Below are positions 1,245-23,301 of a stretch of DNA of 64,000 nt, one piece after another. Source of the stretch: Proteus penneri (lineage in GTDB: Bacteria > Pseudomonadota > Gammaproteobacteria > Enterobacterales > Enterobacteriaceae). The stretch lies in contig NZ_PHFJ01000005.1 in the NCBI RefSeq assembly GCF_003144535.1, positions 1 through 64,000 of the forward strand, written 5' to 3'. The translations under genes were made by a program, and so were the position numbers. The stretch's first letter is position 1, and each line of letters begins with the position of its first letter. The notes under the pieces are model-generated. The model was not told the origin of the DNA, made no database searches, and saw only the letters and a list, made by a program, of their open reading frames with translations.

Positions 1245-2468
1245 TTATCCTTTTACACAAACAACCTGTCGTAGTGTATGAACTATCTCAACAAGTGATA
1301 ACTGCGCCTTCATAACCGCATCAATATCCTTATAAGCCATGGGAATTTCATCAATCACATCTTTATCTTTTCGACATTCCACATGTGCAGTTGCTCTCAT
1401 TTGGTCTTCAACACTAAAGGTTTTTTTCGCTGCTGTTCGACTCATTACGCGTCCTGCACCATGACTACATGAACAGAAACTTTCAGCATTTCCTTTTCCT
1501 CTCACAATAAAACTTTTAGCGCCCATTGAGCCAGGGATTATTCCCATTTCACCTTTTTGAGCCGAAACAGCGCCTTTTCGAGTCACCAGCACTTCTTCAC
1601 CAAAGTGCATTTCCTTTTGCACATAATTATGGTGGCAATTTACCGCCTGTTGTTGTGTTGTAAAAGGCTTAGCTATTTGTGTTGATAATGCCGCCAACAC
1701 GTGTTCCATCATAATTTCACGGTTATGTCGGGCAAAATCCTGTGCCCATTCTACGGCTTCTATATAGTCATCATAGAAAAGTGTCCCTTCTCTTAAATAT
1801 GCTAAGTTTCTATCCGGCAAGTTAGCGATATGTTCCCTCATATCTTCTTGTGCCATTTGTATAAATAGCGTACCGATAGCATTACCGACGCCACGAGAGC
1901 CACTATGTAACATGACCCAAACATTATCTGATTCATCAAGGCACAACTCGATAAAGTGATTCCCTGTTCCTAATGTTCCAAGATGACGATAGTTATTCGT
2001 ATTTCGCAAACGTGGATACTTATCAGTTAACACCTTAAAACGCCCTTCAAGTTGTTGCCAATGCTGATCAACAAGTTTAGGCGGGTTCTTCCATGAACCA
2101 CGATCGTTCCCTGATTGATAACTTGTTCTTCCATGAGGTACTGCTCTTTCTATTGCCGTTCTTATGGCAAATAAATTATCAGGCAGATCATTTGCGTGTA
2201 ATGATGTTTTCACCGCTATCATTCCACAACCGATATCCACACCAACAGCTGCCGGAATAATCGCACCTTTGGTTGGGATAACACTGCCTATTGTTGAACC
2301 TTTGCCTAAGTGAACATCAGGCATGACCGCCATATGTTTAAAAATAAAAGGCATCTTAGCGGTATTGATAAGCTGCTTTAGAGCATCAGCCTCAACAGGC
2401 ACACCATTTGTCCACATTTTAATTTCAGCAGTCCCTGCTTCTTTTACTATTTGGTGATCCAATATCAT
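1245..2468 (-). CDS. rtcB: RNA-splicing ligase RtcB
   Basis: 407 aa. N-terminus …KMWTNGVPVEADALKQLINTAKMPFIFKHMAVMPDVHLGKGSTIGSVIPTKGAIIPAAVGVDIGCGM is near-identical to E. coli RtcB. The stop/start junction with the upstream gene leaves a 2-nt gap. Confidence 0.92.
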   Translation of the reverse strand: MILDHQIVKEAGTAEIKMWTNGVPVEADALKQLINTAKMPFIFKHMAVMPDVHLGKGSTIGSVIPTKGAIIPAAVGVDIGCGMIAVKTSLHANDLPDNLFAIRTAIERAVPHGRTSYQSGNDRGSWKNPPKLVDQHWQQLEGRFKVLTDKYPRLRNTNNYRHLGTLGTGNHFIELCLDESDNVWVMLHSGSRGVGNAIGTLFIQMAQEDMREHIANLPDRNLAYLREGTLFYDDYIEAVEWAQDFARHNREIMMEHVLAALSTQIAKPFTTQQQAVNCHHNYVQKEMHFGEEVLVTRKGAVSAQKGEMGIIPGSMGAKSFIVRGKGNAESFCSCSHGAGRVMSRTAAKKTFSVEDQMRATAHVECRKDKDVIDEIPMAYKDIDAVMKAQLSLVEIVHTLRQVVCVKG

Positions 2469-2470
2469 GC

Positions 2471-3607
2471 TTATGCTCCTTTAATTTGTACTAACCCGTT
2501 TAATACTTGGTCTAAACCGCCATAAACGGAAATCTTATCAATACGTTCTGCAATACGTTCTACGGTTTCTAGCTCTTTTAACCGTAAGGCTACAGGATTG
2601 TTTTCCATCACTTTTGCCGTATTTAATAGAGAACGCGTTGCGGATGTTTCTTCTCTTCGACGAATAACATTAGCCTGAGCTGATTTTTCTGCCTCAACCA
2701 CTTGCGCTAAAATCGTTTTCATTTCACCCGGTAAAACAATATCTTTTACCCCTAATGAAGCCACTTCAATACCATATCCTTGAGTGACTTCACTGATTTT
2801 TTCACTGACTAAACTATCTATCAGGCTTTTATTTTCTAATAATTCATCCAGCGTTCTTGTTCCTACTGCTTCGCGTAAAGCAAATTGCAACTCTTTATAT
2901 AAAAACTCCAATGGTGAAGCCAATTGTTGATATGCTAAAAGTACGTCGCTATAACGCCAGTTAGCCGATAAATTAATACGCAGTGTTACTTTGTCTTTTG
3001 TTAAGATCTCCTGTCCACTCACATCCAGTGTTTGTAAACGCATATCGACTACTTCAACATCCACTTTATGCTGATAACGCCAATAGCCTTTTAATCCCGG
3101 TGGCAATAACGCTTGTGTTTCCCCATTGATCCGAATAACACCATTATGCCAAGCAGGAATATCCACATTGAGGATCCCTTCACTTCCTTTTATGACTTGA
3201 TTTCGTAATTTAGGATGCTGGAGTTTTTTCATCAACATTGAAGATACTTCAAGTTCATCGATAGATACTATTTCTAGAGAACGGTCGGCATAACGCCAAT
3301 ATAAACGTCGTGTTCCTGGTGCTAAGATCTCTTTTAAAGAGCCGTTTTCATATAAAAGGCCAATCTCTTCATCCGATAACACAATATCAAAACCATACTC
3401 AGCTACCCATTTAGGATAATATTGACGTAAAAATTCGGCTTTCTCGCTTTCTAATGCCCCCCCATTTAAAGGGAAGAGATCTACACTGAGCTGACGCCAA
3501 AAATCAAAAAACTTATGTTCACCTGCTGTTAGCACATCAATGTACTCATCTTTTTTCTTTAAAAGTGCTAACTGCCCCTGTTTTACCACTATTGTTGTTT
3601 TTATCAT
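2471..3607 (-). CDS. SPFH/band-7 (stomatin/prohibitin-like) domain protein, first gene of the rtcB operon
   Basis: 378 aa. The C-terminal half carries a typical SPFH signature (…VTLRINLSANWRYSD…KDIVLPGEMKTILAQVVEAEKSAQANVIRRREETSATRSLLNTAKVMENNPVALRLKELETVERIA…). It lies directly upstream of rtcB and is translationally coupled to it. Confidence 0.75.
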   Translation of the reverse strand: MIKTTIVVKQGQLALLKKKDEYIDVLTAGEHKFFDFWRQLSVDLFPLNGGALESEKAEFLRQYYPKWVAEYGFDIVLSDEEIGLLYENGSLKEILAPGTRRLYWRYADRSLEIVSIDELEVSSMLMKKLQHPKLRNQVIKGSEGILNVDIPAWHNGVIRINGETQALLPPGLKGYWRYQHKVDVEVVDMRLQTLDVSGQEILTKDKVTLRINLSANWRYSDVLLAYQQLASPLEFLYKELQFALREAVGTRTLDELLENKSLIDSLVSEKISEVTQGYGIEVASLGVKDIVLPGEMKTILAQVVEAEKSAQANVIRRREETSATRSLLNTAKVMENNPVALRLKELETVERIAERIDKISVYGGLDQVLNGLVQIKGA

Positions 3608-3772
3608 TTTTCGTTCCTTCTTCTTTTATTCTTCTTTATATAGTGCAATTTATCGTGACTTACTTTTCCACGGGCAAGCTTTGCGAAACTGAAAGGAAAA
3701 CAAGAGAGGAACGATACTTTGTTTGTCTCTTCTTCTGCTATCAATCCAGCTCAGTTGCTGGTGGATAAGTAA

Positions 3773-3808
3773 GGTGACGGTACAGCTGTCACAACGATTT
3801 TTTTATTT
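3773..3808 (+). terminator. Stem-loop followed by a T7 run on the plus strand, inside the minus-strand operon leader
   Basis: gtgacggtACAgctgtcac forms an 8-bp stem with two G·U pairs and a 3-nt loop. It is followed 4 nt later by ttttttt. Confidence 0.3.
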
Positions 3809-3830
3809 AATTTTACATTTGGATTTGTAA

Positions 3831-3858
3831 TGGTTTTGGTGTCAGGAATCGAACCTGA
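3831..3858 (-). ncRNA. tRNA-like 3' fragment (T-arm, 7-nt acceptor strand, discriminator, CCA) in the rtcB-operon leader; either a Y-RNA-like module or a tRNA remnant
   Basis: Minus strand reads tCAGG-TTCGATT-CCTGa-CACCAAA-A-CCA. This is a canonical 5-bp T-stem with a 7-nt TTCGATT loop, then exactly 7+1+3 nt to CCA. No complete cloverleaf could be folded upstream of it. Confidence 0.35.
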
Positions 3859-3970
3859 AAATAACCCTCTTCACCTACAGAGTCTCGATGTGGAGGAACA
3901 CATTTAGATAACACGACAGAGTGTTCTTTATGTGCCTACCAGATTTAAAATCTGCTCAAGACAATAATAA

Positions 3971-3990
3971 CATTGCCAATATCGTGCCAA
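3971..3990 (-). promoter_or_regulatory. Candidate sigma-54 (-24/-12) promoter driving the leader/SPFH/rtcB transcript
   Basis: Minus strand reads tTGGCACGatatTGGCAatg, against the consensus TGGCACG-N4-TTGCW. The GG-N10-GC spacing is correct. It points toward rtcB and is divergent from rtcR, as in the E. coli rtcBA/rtcR arrangement. Confidence 0.5.
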
Positions 3991-4154
3991 GTTTTAAAAA
4001 AACACCAAAAATATTTTTAATTCATTGTTTTTATTAATTAAATTATTTTTAGTGTTATTTTTAGATATTTACCCATTAAATTAAAAACAACAGAACACTA
4101 TCTTTTTATCTATATATTTATAAAAATAGATAAAAAATAAGTAGGGATAACTTA

Positions 4155-5744
4155 ATGAAACGCAAAGTAGTGATTGGTGTTTTAGGCACAACATTAGATA
4201 AAAGAGGTAAAAGCCATAAAAGGTGGAATTCATGGCGCCCAACAATTTCCATTTGTCATCAAAAGGATTTTCCTGTTAGCCGATTAGTGATGATCCACCA
4301 GCCTAATGATTCAATGTTAGCGTCAAAGATCACTGAAGATATTCATACCATTTCACCTGATACTGAGGTGTGGCCTTATGAAATTGATATTTGTGATCCG
4401 TGGGATCTTGAAGAGGTTTACAGCCATTTTCTTGATTTTGCCGTGAATTATCCATTTGATACTGAAAATGAAGAATATTATGTGCATATCACAACGGGAA
4501 CACATATTGCTCAAATTTGTTGGTTTCTACTGACAGAAGCACACTACTTGCCAGCAAAACTATTACAAACCTCACCCACATCTAAAATAGAAAATAAAGA
4601 CGGTGTGAAAACCATACAGTCAGCTACGGGCAGTTATGCCATTATTGACCTTGATTTAAGCCGTTATACAAAATTAACGAGCCGGTTTGAGCACTACCAT
4701 AATGAGTCACTCTCTTTTTTAAAATCGGGGATTGCCACACGTAATGAACGCTTCAATACTTTAATTGCTCAGATTGAACGAGTCGCATTGCGCTCTTTTG
4801 CTCCTATTCTATTAACTGGTCCCACTGGTGCTGGAAAATCATTTCTTGCTCAACGTATTTATGAATTACGACAATCACGCCATTTTGTAAAAGGGCGTTT
4901 TATCGCTGTTAACTGCGCCACTTTGCGAGGAGACAATGCGATGTCCACTTTATTTGGACATGTAAAAGGTGCATTTACAGGGGCATTACAAGCCAGACAT
5001 GGCTTATTAAGAGAAGCAGATAAAGGGATTTTATTTCTTGATGAAATTGCAGAATTAGGACTTGATGAGCAAGCGATGCTACTTAAAGCAATAGAAGAAA
5101 AATCTTTTTATCCTTATGGTTCAGATACTGAGGTACAAAGTGATTTTCAGCTAATCGCAGGAACACATCGTGATATGGACAAGCAAATTGCAAAAGGACT
5201 TTTTCGTGAAGATCTCTATGCAAGGATCAACTTATGGTCTTTTTCACTACCTGGTCTAGCCGATCGTAAAGAGGATATTGAGCCTAATATCGATTATGAA
5301 TTGCATCACTTTACAAAACGCCATCAAAAGGTAATCCGTTTTAACTCTGATGCGAAATCTCACTATATTCGGTTTGCCACATCTGAACAGGCATTATGGC
5401 GTGGTAATTTTCGTGAACTTAGTGCTAGTATAACGCGAATGGCAACACTTGCCGAAAATGGTCGTATTACTCTAGCACTTGTTGAGGAAGAAATTAGCCG
5501 TTTAAGACAAAATTGGGGAATAACTTCTTCTTTATTAAAAGATCAGGATATCGATCTTTTCGATCTCAGCCAACTGAATACGGTTATCAAAACTTGCCAG
5601 CAATCATCAACTCTCTCAGAAGCCGGTAGAAAACTTTTCGCAGTATCAAGACAAAATAAAAAACAGCCCAACGATGCCGATCGCCTACGCAAATACCTTG
5701 CGAAATTTGATTTAAGCTGGGAACAAATTCAACATGGAGAATAA
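4155..5744 (+). CDS. rtcR: Sigma-54-dependent transcriptional regulator RtcR
   Basis: 529 aa. Collinear with E. coli RtcR, with a CARF-like N-terminus, an AAA+ core (…LLTGPTGAGKSFLA…GAFTGA…ILFLDEIAELG…) and a conserved C-terminus (…NDADRLRKYLAKFDLSWEQIQ). Confidence 0.88.
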   Translation: MKRKVVIGVLGTTLDKRGKSHKRWNSWRPTISICHQKDFPVSRLVMIHQPNDSMLASKITEDIHTISPDTEVWPYEIDICDPWDLEEVYSHFLDFAVNYPFDTENEEYYVHITTGTHIAQICWFLLTEAHYLPAKLLQTSPTSKIENKDGVKTIQSATGSYAIIDLDLSRYTKLTSRFEHYHNESLSFLKSGIATRNERFNTLIAQIERVALRSFAPILLTGPTGAGKSFLAQRIYELRQSRHFVKGRFIAVNCATLRGDNAMSTLFGHVKGAFTGALQARHGLLREADKGILFLDEIAELGLDEQAMLLKAIEEKSFYPYGSDTEVQSDFQLIAGTHRDMDKQIAKGLFREDLYARINLWSFSLPGLADRKEDIEPNIDYELHHFTKRHQKVIRFNSDAKSHYIRFATSEQALWRGNFRELSASITRMATLAENGRITLALVEEEISRLRQNWGITSSLLKDQDIDLFDLSQLNTVIKTCQQSSTLSEAGRKLFAVSRQNKKQPNDADRLRKYLAKFDLSWEQIQHGE

Positions 5745-5753
5745 TATTTCATT

Positions 5754-6671
5754 ATGGAGCTCATTTTTTTAGGCACTAATGCTGGTGTTCCTTCTAAAGA
5801 TCGGAACGTCACAAGTATGGTGCTTGATTTACAAAATAAACAAAAAAGTATGTGGATGTTCGATTGTGGTGAAGCGACACAACATCAGATACTGCATACC
5901 CGCGTGAAACTACCGCGTTTAAATAAAATTTTTATTACCCATTTGCATGGCGATCATATTTTTGGTTTACCAGGATTACTTTGTAGTCGCTCAATGGGGG
6001 GAACAGAAACACTTTTAACAGTGTATGGCCCTACGGGTATAAAAGCTTTTATAGAAACAGCGCTGACATTAAGTCAATCCTATTTAACTTACCCTATTAA
6101 TATTATTGAGATTGACGAAGCTGGTTTTCTGTTTGAAGAAGAAGGAATGAAAGTCAGTTGTGAAGCGCTTTCTCATCCAGTACCTTGTTTTGGCTATCGC
6201 TTAGAAGAAGAAAATAGCCCCGGTAAACTCGATGCTCAGAAGCTAAAAGCTGAAAATATTCCGACCGGCCCTTGGTTACAAGAGTTAAAACAAGGCAAAA
6301 CTATTACGTTGCCCGATGGCAGAGTCATTGATGGCCAAGAATATATCGGCCCTGAAATAAAAGGACGCTGTATTGCTATTTTTGGTGATACACAACCCAC
6401 TCCGGATGCATTAAAACTAGCAAATAATGCAGATGTTATTGTGCATGAAGCAACGTTTAAGCATGAAATGGCAGAACAAGCCAATAGTCGCGGGCATTCA
6501 ACTACAGTACAAGCTGCAACATTAGCAAAAGACGCTAATGTCAAAAAGTTGATTATTACCCATCTTAGTAGCCGCTATTTACCCGAAGAGTGCGTTGAGT
6601 TACTCAATGAATGCCAACACGTTTTTAGCCATACTGAAATTGCGTCTGATTTTGCTGTGTTTAAGTTATAG
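5754..6671 (+). CDS. rbn: Ribonuclease BN / RNase Z (metallo-beta-lactamase fold)
   Basis: 305 aa. MELIFLGT(N/S)AGVP…FITHLHGDHIFGLPGLLCSRSM… aligns with E. coli RNase BN (ElaC) over its full length. It starts 9 nt after the rtcR stop codon. Confidence 0.85.
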   Translation: MELIFLGTNAGVPSKDRNVTSMVLDLQNKQKSMWMFDCGEATQHQILHTRVKLPRLNKIFITHLHGDHIFGLPGLLCSRSMGGTETLLTVYGPTGIKAFIETALTLSQSYLTYPINIIEIDEAGFLFEEEGMKVSCEALSHPVPCFGYRLEEENSPGKLDAQKLKAENIPTGPWLQELKQGKTITLPDGRVIDGQEYIGPEIKGRCIAIFGDTQPTPDALKLANNADVIVHEATFKHEMAEQANSRGHSTTVQAATLAKDANVKKLIITHLSSRYLPEECVELLNECQHVFSHTEIASDFAVFKL

Positions 6672-23224: not shown

Positions 23225-23301
23225 TGGCGGAACGGACGGGACTCGAACCCGCGCCCCCCTGCGTGACAGGCAGGTATTCTAACCAACTGAACTACCGCTC
23301 C
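23225..23301 (-). tRNA. aspV: tRNA-Asp (anticodon GUC)
   Basis: The reverse complement GGAGCGGTAGTTCAGTTGGTTAGAATACCTGCCTGTCACGCAGGGGGCGCGGGTTCGAGTCCCGTCCGTTCCGCCA matches E. coli tRNA-Asp at all but 2-3 positions, with a 77-nt cloverleaf. It lies downstream of dnaQ, as aspV does in E. coli. Confidence 0.93.

Follow-up and report, generated by a model that had tools for sequence, protein, structure and literature searches.

What is a piece of tRNA doing at the head of an RNA-repair operon? The question is raised by a 64,000-nucleotide stretch of Proteus penneri DNA (contig NZ_PHFJ01000005.1 of assembly GCF_003144535.1, positions 1 to 64,000; hereafter the window), in which an operon encoding the RNA ligase RtcB is preceded by a leader that carries, on the minus strand, a T-arm, an acceptor strand and a CCA end in the geometry of a tRNA. 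An earlier note on this DNA had offered two readings of this module, either as the tRNA-mimic domain of a Y-RNA-like RNA of the YrlA type or as the 3' end of a tRNA gene duplicated during an integrase-mediated insertion. From a comparison of this leader with those of related operons, we conclude that the Proteus element is very probably a reduced variant of the band-7-associated tRNA-like RNA (b7a-tRNA), when set against that class as it is summarised by Wang et al. (10.1101/312249).

The operon runs on the minus strand from a sigma-54 promoter, divergent from rtcR, through a leader of ~355 nt into a gene for a slipin-family (Band-7/SPFH) protein and then into rtcB, with neither rsr nor rtcA among its genes (Table 1). 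While the module had thus been correctly placed in the leader of an operon that contains rtcB, the first gene of this operon is slipin, and rtcB comes second. The transcription start predicted from the promoter geometry lies at ~3963, and the span that had been singled out for the element (3831-3960) fits the distance from this start to the CCA. The leader does not end at the CCA, as had been supposed, but has a further 223 nt before the start codon of slipin (ATG at 3607).

The tRNA-like unit of the Proteus leader

The minus strand reads TCAGG-TTCGATT-CCTGA-CACCAAA-A-CCA from 3858 to 3831, ending in the letters CACCAAAACCA, and agrees letter for letter with the T-stem, T-loop, acceptor strand, discriminator and CCA described previously. 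The 7-nt loop UUCGAUU matches the T54-Psi55-C56-R57-A58 consensus, the arm as a whole being that of a canonical tRNA. Where 0.22 occurrences of its core motif, GGTTCRANTCC, would be expected, the window has two, this one and that of a genuine tRNA-Asp gene. The 28-mer 3858-3831 is unique in the window even when 3 mismatches are allowed, so that the identical copy elsewhere, which had been named as the sign of a duplicated tRNA end, is absent from these 64 kb. As the earlier note had held, this is not an intact tRNA gene: ARAGORN and Rfam made no call on the leader, either at the gathering threshold or at E<=10, the sole tRNA in the window being tRNA-Asp (23225-23301), and neither ARAGORN nor the Rfam tRNA model (RF00005, at 29 bits or more) recognised a four-arm cloverleaf in the element.

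We likewise found neither a D-stem nor an anticodon arm. A 5' acceptor strand, which had been missed, does exist in partial form as the sequence GUAGGUG, 13 nt upstream of the T-arm, which forms 5/7 pairs with CACCAAA, 4 of them contiguous. The acceptor register is exact (7 + A + CCA), with 5/7 positions pairing here versus 6/7 in the equivalent loci of P. hauseri-like genomes, which were obtained via proteins P0017 and P0015. These read AUCAGUG ... CACUGAA-A-CCA and have six contiguous acceptor pairs; relative to the window, pair 4-69 has changed from G-C to A-U, a compensatory change, and the A.A mismatch at 3-70 has become C-G. Judged on sequence, this within-genus difference is the most telling test of the acceptor stem. 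The tRNA-like unit is identical across four other Proteus loci, in which flanking positions vary.

Two other sequences were considered as the 5' acceptor strand and rejected. TTTGGTG at 4009-4003, a perfect complement of the 3' strand, is situated upstream of the sigma-54 promoter, and two related loci, L001 and L002, do not conserve it (the handles L001 and so on denote the loci of the survey described below). TGTGGTG in L001/L002, a 6-of-7 complement, lies inside hairpin H2 of the leader and is mismatched at that site in the window.

Slipin leaders across Gamma- and Betaproteobacteria

The comparison with orthologous loci that the earlier note had proposed was carried out by scanning GTDB species genomes with a slipin alignment, which identified 80 loci in Gamma- and Betaproteobacteria, 79 of them with a T-arm motif upstream of slipin. 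The rtcR gene is divergent from slipin in 63/80 loci and rtcB lies downstream in 62/80, and most loci have a sigma-54 promoter of canonical spacing 127-195 nt upstream of the first T-arm. The leaders share a common plan, in which a 5' domain containing two hairpins, H1 and H2, is followed by a tRNA-like unit (unit 1), a second such unit (unit 2), a small hairpin and a long downstream domain. Unit 1 is made up of a 7-nt 5' strand, a short linker, the T-arm and a 7-nt 3' strand, often followed by N-CCA; in Pseudomonas the linker consists of full D and anticodon arms. Unit 2 is a complete cloverleaf with an acceptor stem of 4-6 bp and without CCA. In most Pseudomonas and Betaproteobacteria loci, unit 2, and in Pseudomonas also unit 1, score 33-52 bits with the Rfam tRNA model, and the anticodons that ARAGORN assigns to them are inconsistent or impossible (Met, Ser, Leu, Arg, Thr, Val, Ile, Pro, 'Stop', and anticodons of 2 or 4 bases). 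In the Enterobacterales, by contrast, 16/16 loci (that of Proteus among them) contain just one T-arm and lack the cloverleaf, and none of their leaders yielded an ARAGORN tRNA call; Erwinia, Franconibacter and Providencia are among the genera with this reduced form. On this distribution of sequences, the Enterobacterales have lost the second, full-cloverleaf unit.

We then asked how the Proteus module relates to unit 1 using a covariance model, R1, which comprises a 7-bp acceptor stem and a 5-bp T-stem and was built from 22 unit-1 sequences, none of them from Proteus. Because linker lengths vary, MAFFT failed to register the 5' strands of all 40 units; the short-linker subset was modelled and the sequences were then re-aligned with Infernal. 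R1 matches the window at 3830-3879 on the minus strand over its full length (26.3 bits, E = 8e-4), and its next match covers only the T-arm of tRNA-Asp (14.8 bits). In this alignment GUAGGUG (3878-3872) is paired with CACCAAA with two non-canonical positions, and the ACCA falls on the consensus. The search with covariance models that had been recommended for this region was negative with the Rfam models for tRNA and YrlA; R1 is the model that matched. By this sequence comparison, the Proteus module is homologous to unit 1 of the leaders of both slipin-RtcB and slipin-RlaP operons.

Across all loci, 89% of the cells in the alignment of the 41 R1 matches pair, versus 70% in column shuffles and 38-56% with slid partners, and compensatory changes are found in all 7 acceptor pairs and in 2/5 T-stem pairs (38 distinct sequences), in an alignment that is itself model-fitted and leans towards structure. 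The raw sequences agree, as in the strand pairs GGCGATG/CATCGCC, GGGAATG/CATTCCT, GGTGAGG/CTTCACC and GGATCAT/ATGGTCC. The position of the CCA is also specific: of the 61 distinct flanks of units that lack a D-arm, 16 have a CCA starting at offset 8 after the T-stem and 7 have one at offset 7, and it is seen 0-3 times at offset 6 and at offsets 9-19, while the occurrences at offsets 4-5 (6 and 10) fall within the acceptor strand.

The linker, which in Proteus is AAGAGGGUUAUUU, is conserved in one respect. A GG dinucleotide is found 2-7 nt after the 5' strand in 34/37 distinct linkers versus 14.7 +/- 2.9 in shuffles, often within the loop of a mini-hairpin of 2-3 bp (CUC-GUCGG-GAG; in Proteus, AA-GAGGG-UU). 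We infer that the linker is a reduced D-loop, whose GG, as an analogue of G18/G19, could pair with the T-loop to form a tRNA elbow. With an acceptor stem, a putative elbow, a T-arm and a CCA, unit 1 is therefore a tRNA without its anticodon arm, or tRNA 'top half'.

The leader is also found where RtcB is absent. In loci of the Klebsiella, Citrobacter, Lonsdalea, Brenneria and Hafnia type, the T-arm leader and slipin are kept in the company of an RlaP nucleotidyltransferase (PF10127) and without RtcB, which indicates that the RNA tracks slipin and not RtcB.

Several further features of these loci were noted. One locus, L068 (Pseudomonas entomophila), is the sole one without any T-arm; its sigma-54 promoter and 5' domain are present and both tRNA-like units are missing, making it a natural deletion variant. 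Some Betaproteobacteria possess an extra minihelix between slipin and rtcB, composed of a T-arm, a 7-nt strand and N-CCA (e.g. GCGGGTTCGAGTCCCGC-CATGTCC-A-CCA), a position that is the same as that of yrlBA in the Salmonella rsr-yrlBA-rtcBA operon. In a number of Enterobacterales (L005, L006, L007, L009, L010, L012-L014 and L084) the strand after the T-arm closes with a downstream copy, and these closed hairpins covary clearly (TTCACT/AGTGAA, TTCATT/AATGAA, TCACC/GGTGA, CATCA/TGATG). Some of the same strands can alternatively pair upstream, giving either a closed topology like that of YrlA or two alternative conformers. Finally, three Burkholderiales loci (L048, L049 and L053) are without rtcR and the sigma-54 promoter, and have the leader and slipin just 3' of an ordinary tRNA cluster, which lies ~1-1.5 kb upstream of slipin and in L053 comprises Asp, Phe, Arg, Pro, His and Glu; in Anabaena, translation stress co-induces rtcB, a slipin gene and a spare tRNA operon (PMC10272220).

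Relation to known tRNA-like RNAs and possible roles

Which class of RNA does the element belong to? It shares with a canonical tRNA the T-arm sequence, the 7-nt acceptor register, the discriminator and the encoded CCA, and differs in having neither D-stem, nor anticodon arm, nor anticodon. It resembles the tRNA-like domain of tmRNA and synthetic minihelices more fully, since these also combine an acceptor stem, a T-arm, a reduced D-loop and a 3' CCA in the absence of an anticodon arm. However, ARAGORN finds no tmRNA, position 3-70 is A.A and not the G3.U70 alanine identity pair, and the Proteus unit possesses neither a pseudoknot nor a tag reading frame, having a 13-nt linker in place of the tmRNA body. 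RNase P, the CCA-adding enzyme and TruB are known to accept tRNA top halves of this kind.

YrlA RNAs offer a parallel in genomic setting. In these, the V and T arms, a closed acceptor stem-loop and the D-arm follow one another within a Ro-binding stem, as a circular permutation of a tRNA (PMC4201824); they are modified by TruB and DusA, and YrlA of M. smegmatis has a 7-bp acceptor, an RNase P cut and a CCA end (PMC4201824). Both YrlA and the Proteus element lie in an RNA-repair operon controlled by RtcR and sigma-54, and both have a full-consensus T-arm and an acceptor-like stem. They differ in that YrlA partners Rsr and has a closed acceptor hairpin, whereas the Proteus acceptor is open and the partner gene is slipin. 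The permuted order is also not found in Proteus: the T-arm has no D-arm downstream of it and is preceded by the 5' acceptor strand. With the Rfam YrlA model (RF02553, gathering score 69) there was no match at E<=10 on window positions 3550-4250 or on a Klebsiella-type leader, and no GNCGAA-type Ro-binding stem is recognisable in the Proteus leader. The first of the two readings in the earlier note therefore holds insofar as this is a conserved tRNA-like non-coding RNA module in an RtcR/sigma-54 repair operon without rsr, and fails in assigning it to the YrlA type. The same model did align below threshold (20.5 bits) to 3635-3684 of L017, over the point where the T-arm of unit 1 meets the D-arm of unit 2. 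A junction of this kind between tandem tRNA-like units may be the source of the permuted T-arm, acceptor and D-arm order in YrlA, a possible clue to how YrlA originated.

With slipin, a Band-7 protein, as the partner gene, the element is instead placed in the band-7-associated class. In the account that Wang et al. give of it, this class is a prediction of Burroughs & Aravind (2016), is considered to overlap YrlA redundantly in function and is experimentally unvalidated (10.1101/312249). The same account has the b7a-tRNA encoded beside a Band-7 gene in RtcB repair operons, states that it 'strongly resembles an authentic tRNA', and proposes that it is to the Band-7 scaffold what Y RNA is to Ro, namely the cognate RNA (10.1101/312249). 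Like these RNAs, the Proteus module adjoins the Band-7/SPFH gene of an RtcB-type operon, and its leader is homologous to the slipin leaders that bear cloverleaves, as seen in the R1 match and in a 5' domain that aligns with theirs and shares their covarying helices. Unlike them, Proteus and the other Enterobacterales do not have a full cloverleaf and have instead a unit that ends in an encoded (A)CCA and has no anticodon arm, together with a structured 5' domain. The Rfam searches of this window returned no family for the band-7-associated tRNA-like RNA.

How might such an RNA work? Its likeliest role, which we propose tentatively, is that of a stable tRNA-mimic cofactor of slipin/RtcB. RtcR is known to be activated by tRNA fragments ending in a cyclic phosphate (PMC7790460). 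RNA damage would activate RtcR, and leader, slipin and RtcB would be produced at the same time. The leader has a tRNA-like elbow, acceptor and CCA that would then be handled by tRNA enzymes, with TruB and TrmA acting on the T-loop, and its ends would be set by RNase P and/or by 3' trimming to the CCA, or through repair by the CCA-adding enzyme. Such processing would leave a stable small RNA ~130 nt long or, with an RNase P cut at 3878/3879, a minihelix of ~48 nt, and this product might partner the slipin oligomer, and through slipin RtcB or RlaP, in the way that YrlA does for Rsr. Taken together, the identity of the element and the cofactor mechanism seem to us reasonably probable. Several points count against them. 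The R1 score of 26 bits is modest, and its E-values are roughly calibrated; the acceptor stem in the window has two mismatches, G.A and A.A; and the 50-nt unit as a whole folds no better than shuffled sequences (z = +0.36), the T hairpin alone being thermodynamically solid. The CCA, moreover, is not universal, many flanks having CC at this place, e.g. ACCU in several Enterobacterales. No intrinsic terminator was found between the tRNA-like module and slipin, so that a free small RNA would need processing, and slipin binding, modification and processing are steps that we infer by analogy with YrlA.

The absence of a terminator places the module and slipin on one transcript, as would be expected if the module acted in cis, as a processing or stability signal cut by RNase P, RNase Z/BN or RNase E that sets the 5' end and half-life of the slipin-rtcB mRNA, or as a conformational switch. 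An A/U-rich single-stranded spacer 3' of the hairpin that follows the CCA, the long hairpin domain, itself conserved, that separates the module from the ribosome-binding site, the upstream or downstream pairing of the 3' acceptor strand in several Enterobacterales, which would create alternative conformers, and the RNase Z/BN gene that follows rtcR in 6 enterobacterial loci can all be accommodated by such a signal. Mere cleavage, however, would not need the conserved elbow GG, the position-specific CCA, or the two tandem units and the extra copies between slipin and rtcB seen in other taxa, and the 5' domain ahead of the module is as well conserved as the module, suggesting that the released RNA itself matters. 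We regard a cis-acting signal as rather unlikely, although it and the cofactor role are not mutually exclusive. The fact that the RtcR ligand is a tRNA fragment with a cyclic phosphate, together with the competitive inhibition of anticodon nucleases suggested for YrlA (PMC7790460), raises the further idea that toxins directed at tRNA would attack the mimic as they do a tRNA. The RNA would then act as a decoy or sentinel that takes up the toxin, or would keep RtcR active, in a feed-forward manner, by supplying it with 2',3'-cyclic-phosphate fragments. Such a role looks improbable, in that Salmonella YrlA is uncleaved under inducing conditions (PMC7790460). The RNA would also be made only once RtcR is already active. 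Several toxins recognise the acceptor, T-arm and CCA region of tRNA, which is the region that the module mimics; yet the Proteus unit has no anticodon loop and so cannot be a substrate for an anticodon nuclease, and the variable 'anticodon' of the cloverleaves elsewhere counts against mimicry of one target tRNA.

Two further readings fare worse. That the element could truly belong to the YrlA family, having lost Rsr as its partner, is suggested by the type of operon, shared with Salmonella rsr-yrlBA-rtcBA, by the common T-arm, by the weak alignment in L017 and by the occasional occurrence of YrlA beside Band-7 genes (10.1101/312249). Set against the missing Rfam match in both leaders searched, the open acceptor, and the lack of a D-arm after the T-arm, of a recognisable Ro-binding stem and of rsr in the operon, this leaves such a descent very improbable. 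Least credible of all, to the point of being negligible, is that the module is the relic of a tRNA 3' end (attL/attR) left by an integrase, or a chance match. The exact geometry of a tRNA 3' end in the absence of a tRNA 5' half would fit a relic, as would the tyrosine recombinase gene at 251-811. The recombinase, however, is an invertase of the FimB/FimE type that lies ~3 kb away, beyond rtcB, and there is no adjacent integrase of the phage type. The element is unlike the 3' end of tRNA-Asp and occurs only once in the window, and neither the leader, searched against E. coli genomes and plasmids, nor a 25-mer, searched against viral contigs, found a match. A tRNA beginning with UUUGGUG, as the 3' strand would demand, would be atypical. 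Furthermore, 79/80 orthologous loci in two classes keep the element, with stems that covary, and the unit is identical in four Proteus loci with varying flanks. It is on the conservation, the covariation, and the lack of a matching tRNA end in the window and of a phage-type integrase that the duplication reading fails.

A more specific form of the partnership with slipin is suggested by the protein itself. Homologues of the window protein carry the name 'slipin family protein', and it is 99% identical to a P. penneri entry. No hydrophobic membrane segment was visible on inspection of its translation. Its AlphaFold model has a pLDDT of 63 overall, with low values in the SPFH and helical part; its confident portion is limited to residues 1-190, where repeated beta-strand units precede the SPFH domain and a long helix. 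In Foldseek, the model matched the cage-forming stomatin, HflK/C and prohibitin, and more weakly the major vault protein (E = 5e-3 over ~450 aligned columns, with a low TM-score); given the low confidence of the model, these fold matches are only suggestive. Together with the beta-strand repeats and the absence of a visible membrane anchor, they point towards a cage, and we speculate that slipin and the leader RNA might form a cytoplasmic ribonucleoprotein cage like the vault or Ro, in which a CCA-ending tRNA top half would be the minimal RNA subunit, gating or recruiting damaged tRNAs or tRNA-handling enzymes to RtcB or RlaP. On these models, such an assembly is an outside chance.

These observations bear on how RtcB repair operons find and handle their substrates, and on why RNAs that mimic tRNA are found in them. 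A band-7-associated RNA class had already been predicted, and the interest of the Proteus element, a moderate one, lies mainly in its isolating the top half with its CCA as the conserved core. An RNA that has been stripped to acceptor stem, elbow, T-arm and CCA, as in Proteus and the other Enterobacterales, points to the top half of the tRNA, and not the anticodon, as the functional core. In addition, culturable enterics provide a small, genetically tractable version in which processing, modification and slipin binding could be tested. The anatomy of the leader, with its sigma-54 start, three-way 5' domain, unit 1, optional unit 2 and extra copies between slipin and rtcB, offers a basis for an RNA family model.

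Other leader structures and neighbouring genes

The leader as a whole folds better than shuffled sequences (z = -3.0), and the positions of its predicted elements are collected in Table 1 together with those of the genes.

Table 1 Features of the slipin-rtcB leader and operon in the window, and of selected elements in other loci of the survey (positions in other loci are preceded by the locus)
Feature	Position	Strand	Basis or remarks
rtcB, RNA ligase; second and last gene of the operon	1245..2468	-	Pfam RtcB, E = 4.4e-131
Slipin-family (SPFH/Band-7) protein, 378 aa; first gene 3' of the leader	2471..3607	-	Pfam Band_7, E = 1.9e-28
Downstream domain: hairpin GUGAC..GUCAC (3792-3774), its loop with the conserved AGCUGUACC motif; long imperfect hairpin (3773-3659)	3659..3792	-	
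Post-CCA hairpin UUACA-AAUCCAAA-UGUAA, beginning immediately after the CCA	3813..3830	-	P. hauseri-like loci: stem kept, loop changed
3' acceptor strand CACCAAA (3841-3835), discriminator A (3834), encoded CCA (3833-3831)	3831..3841	-	Sequence
T-arm UCAGG-UUCGAUU-CCUGA	3842..3858	-	5-bp stem, G53-C61 closing pair; only helix stable in every fold
Linker, 13 nt, reduced D-loop-like, with conserved GG (3867-3865)	3859..3871	-	Replaces the D-stem and the whole anticodon arm
5' acceptor strand GUAGGUG	3872..3878	-	R1 alignment and comparison with P. hauseri-like loci
5' domain: long-range helix P1, GUCUUGA (3962-3956) with UCGAGAC (3888-3882), enclosing H1 and H2	3882..3962	-	Centroid fold
H2, long bipartite hairpin: basal stem GCACAU/AUGUGU, upper stem AACAC/GUGUU	3898..3935	-	RNAalifold
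H1, hairpin CAGAUU-UUA-AAUCUG	3940..3954	-	RNAalifold: compensatory changes in all pairs
Sigma-54 promoter TGGCACGATATTGGCA, GG at -24, GC at -12	3974..3989	-	Read from the sequence; canonical spacing
rtcR, sigma-54 activator with RtcR/CARF-type N-terminal domain	4155..5744	+	Pfam RtcR and Sigma54_activat; NCBIfam RNA_repair_RtcR, 798 bits; divergent from the leader
RlaP after slipin	L005 5164-5946; L009 5122-5910; L084 2337-3140		
Extra minihelix between slipin and rtcB	L027 5562-5610; L071 5323-5372; L032 ~5340-5390; L074 ~5350-5400		R1 scores for two: 28.4 and 23.2 bits

Within the 5' domain, an A-to-G change in helix P1 in L001, L002 and L081 keeps the pair as a U.G wobble. In H2, compensatory changes were found by RNAalifold in 13/19 and 21/26 predicted pairs, using 25 and 10 sequences respectively. 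H1 takes the form of a T-arm-like hairpin in Betaproteobacteria (GGGUUC..CCC; e.g. CAGGG-TTCGAAAC-GCCCTG), as seen in L020, L025, L030, L054 and others. The 5' domain may represent a third, decayed tRNA-like unit, with H1 reduced in Proteus. On the other side of the tRNA-like unit, hairpins equivalent to the one after the CCA, with other sequences, follow the tRNA-like units in other taxa. In the downstream domain, GUGAC/GUCAC has become GUGGC/GCCAC in L082; the cross-taxon alignment of this domain is too rough to define a structure.

Two neighbouring genes deserve mention. In Proteus, an RNase Z/BN gene (5754-6671, plus strand) starts 9 nt past the stop codon of rtcR, and such a gene also comes after rtcR in Erwinia, Lonsdalea, Brenneria and Providencia (L003, L005, L006 and L008); it is found there in 6 enterobacterial loci and in no other locus. 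It is possible that this linkage reflects 3' processing of the tRNA-like RNA, or it may be plain synteny. At the other end of the operon, the FimB/FimE-type invertase gene is encoded on the plus strand and lies ~430 nt past the stop codon of rtcB. Between the two lie a highly AT-rich segment and a hairpin, CTATCCCC..GGGGATAG, the latter at 1190-1222 on the minus strand, directly 3' of rtcB.

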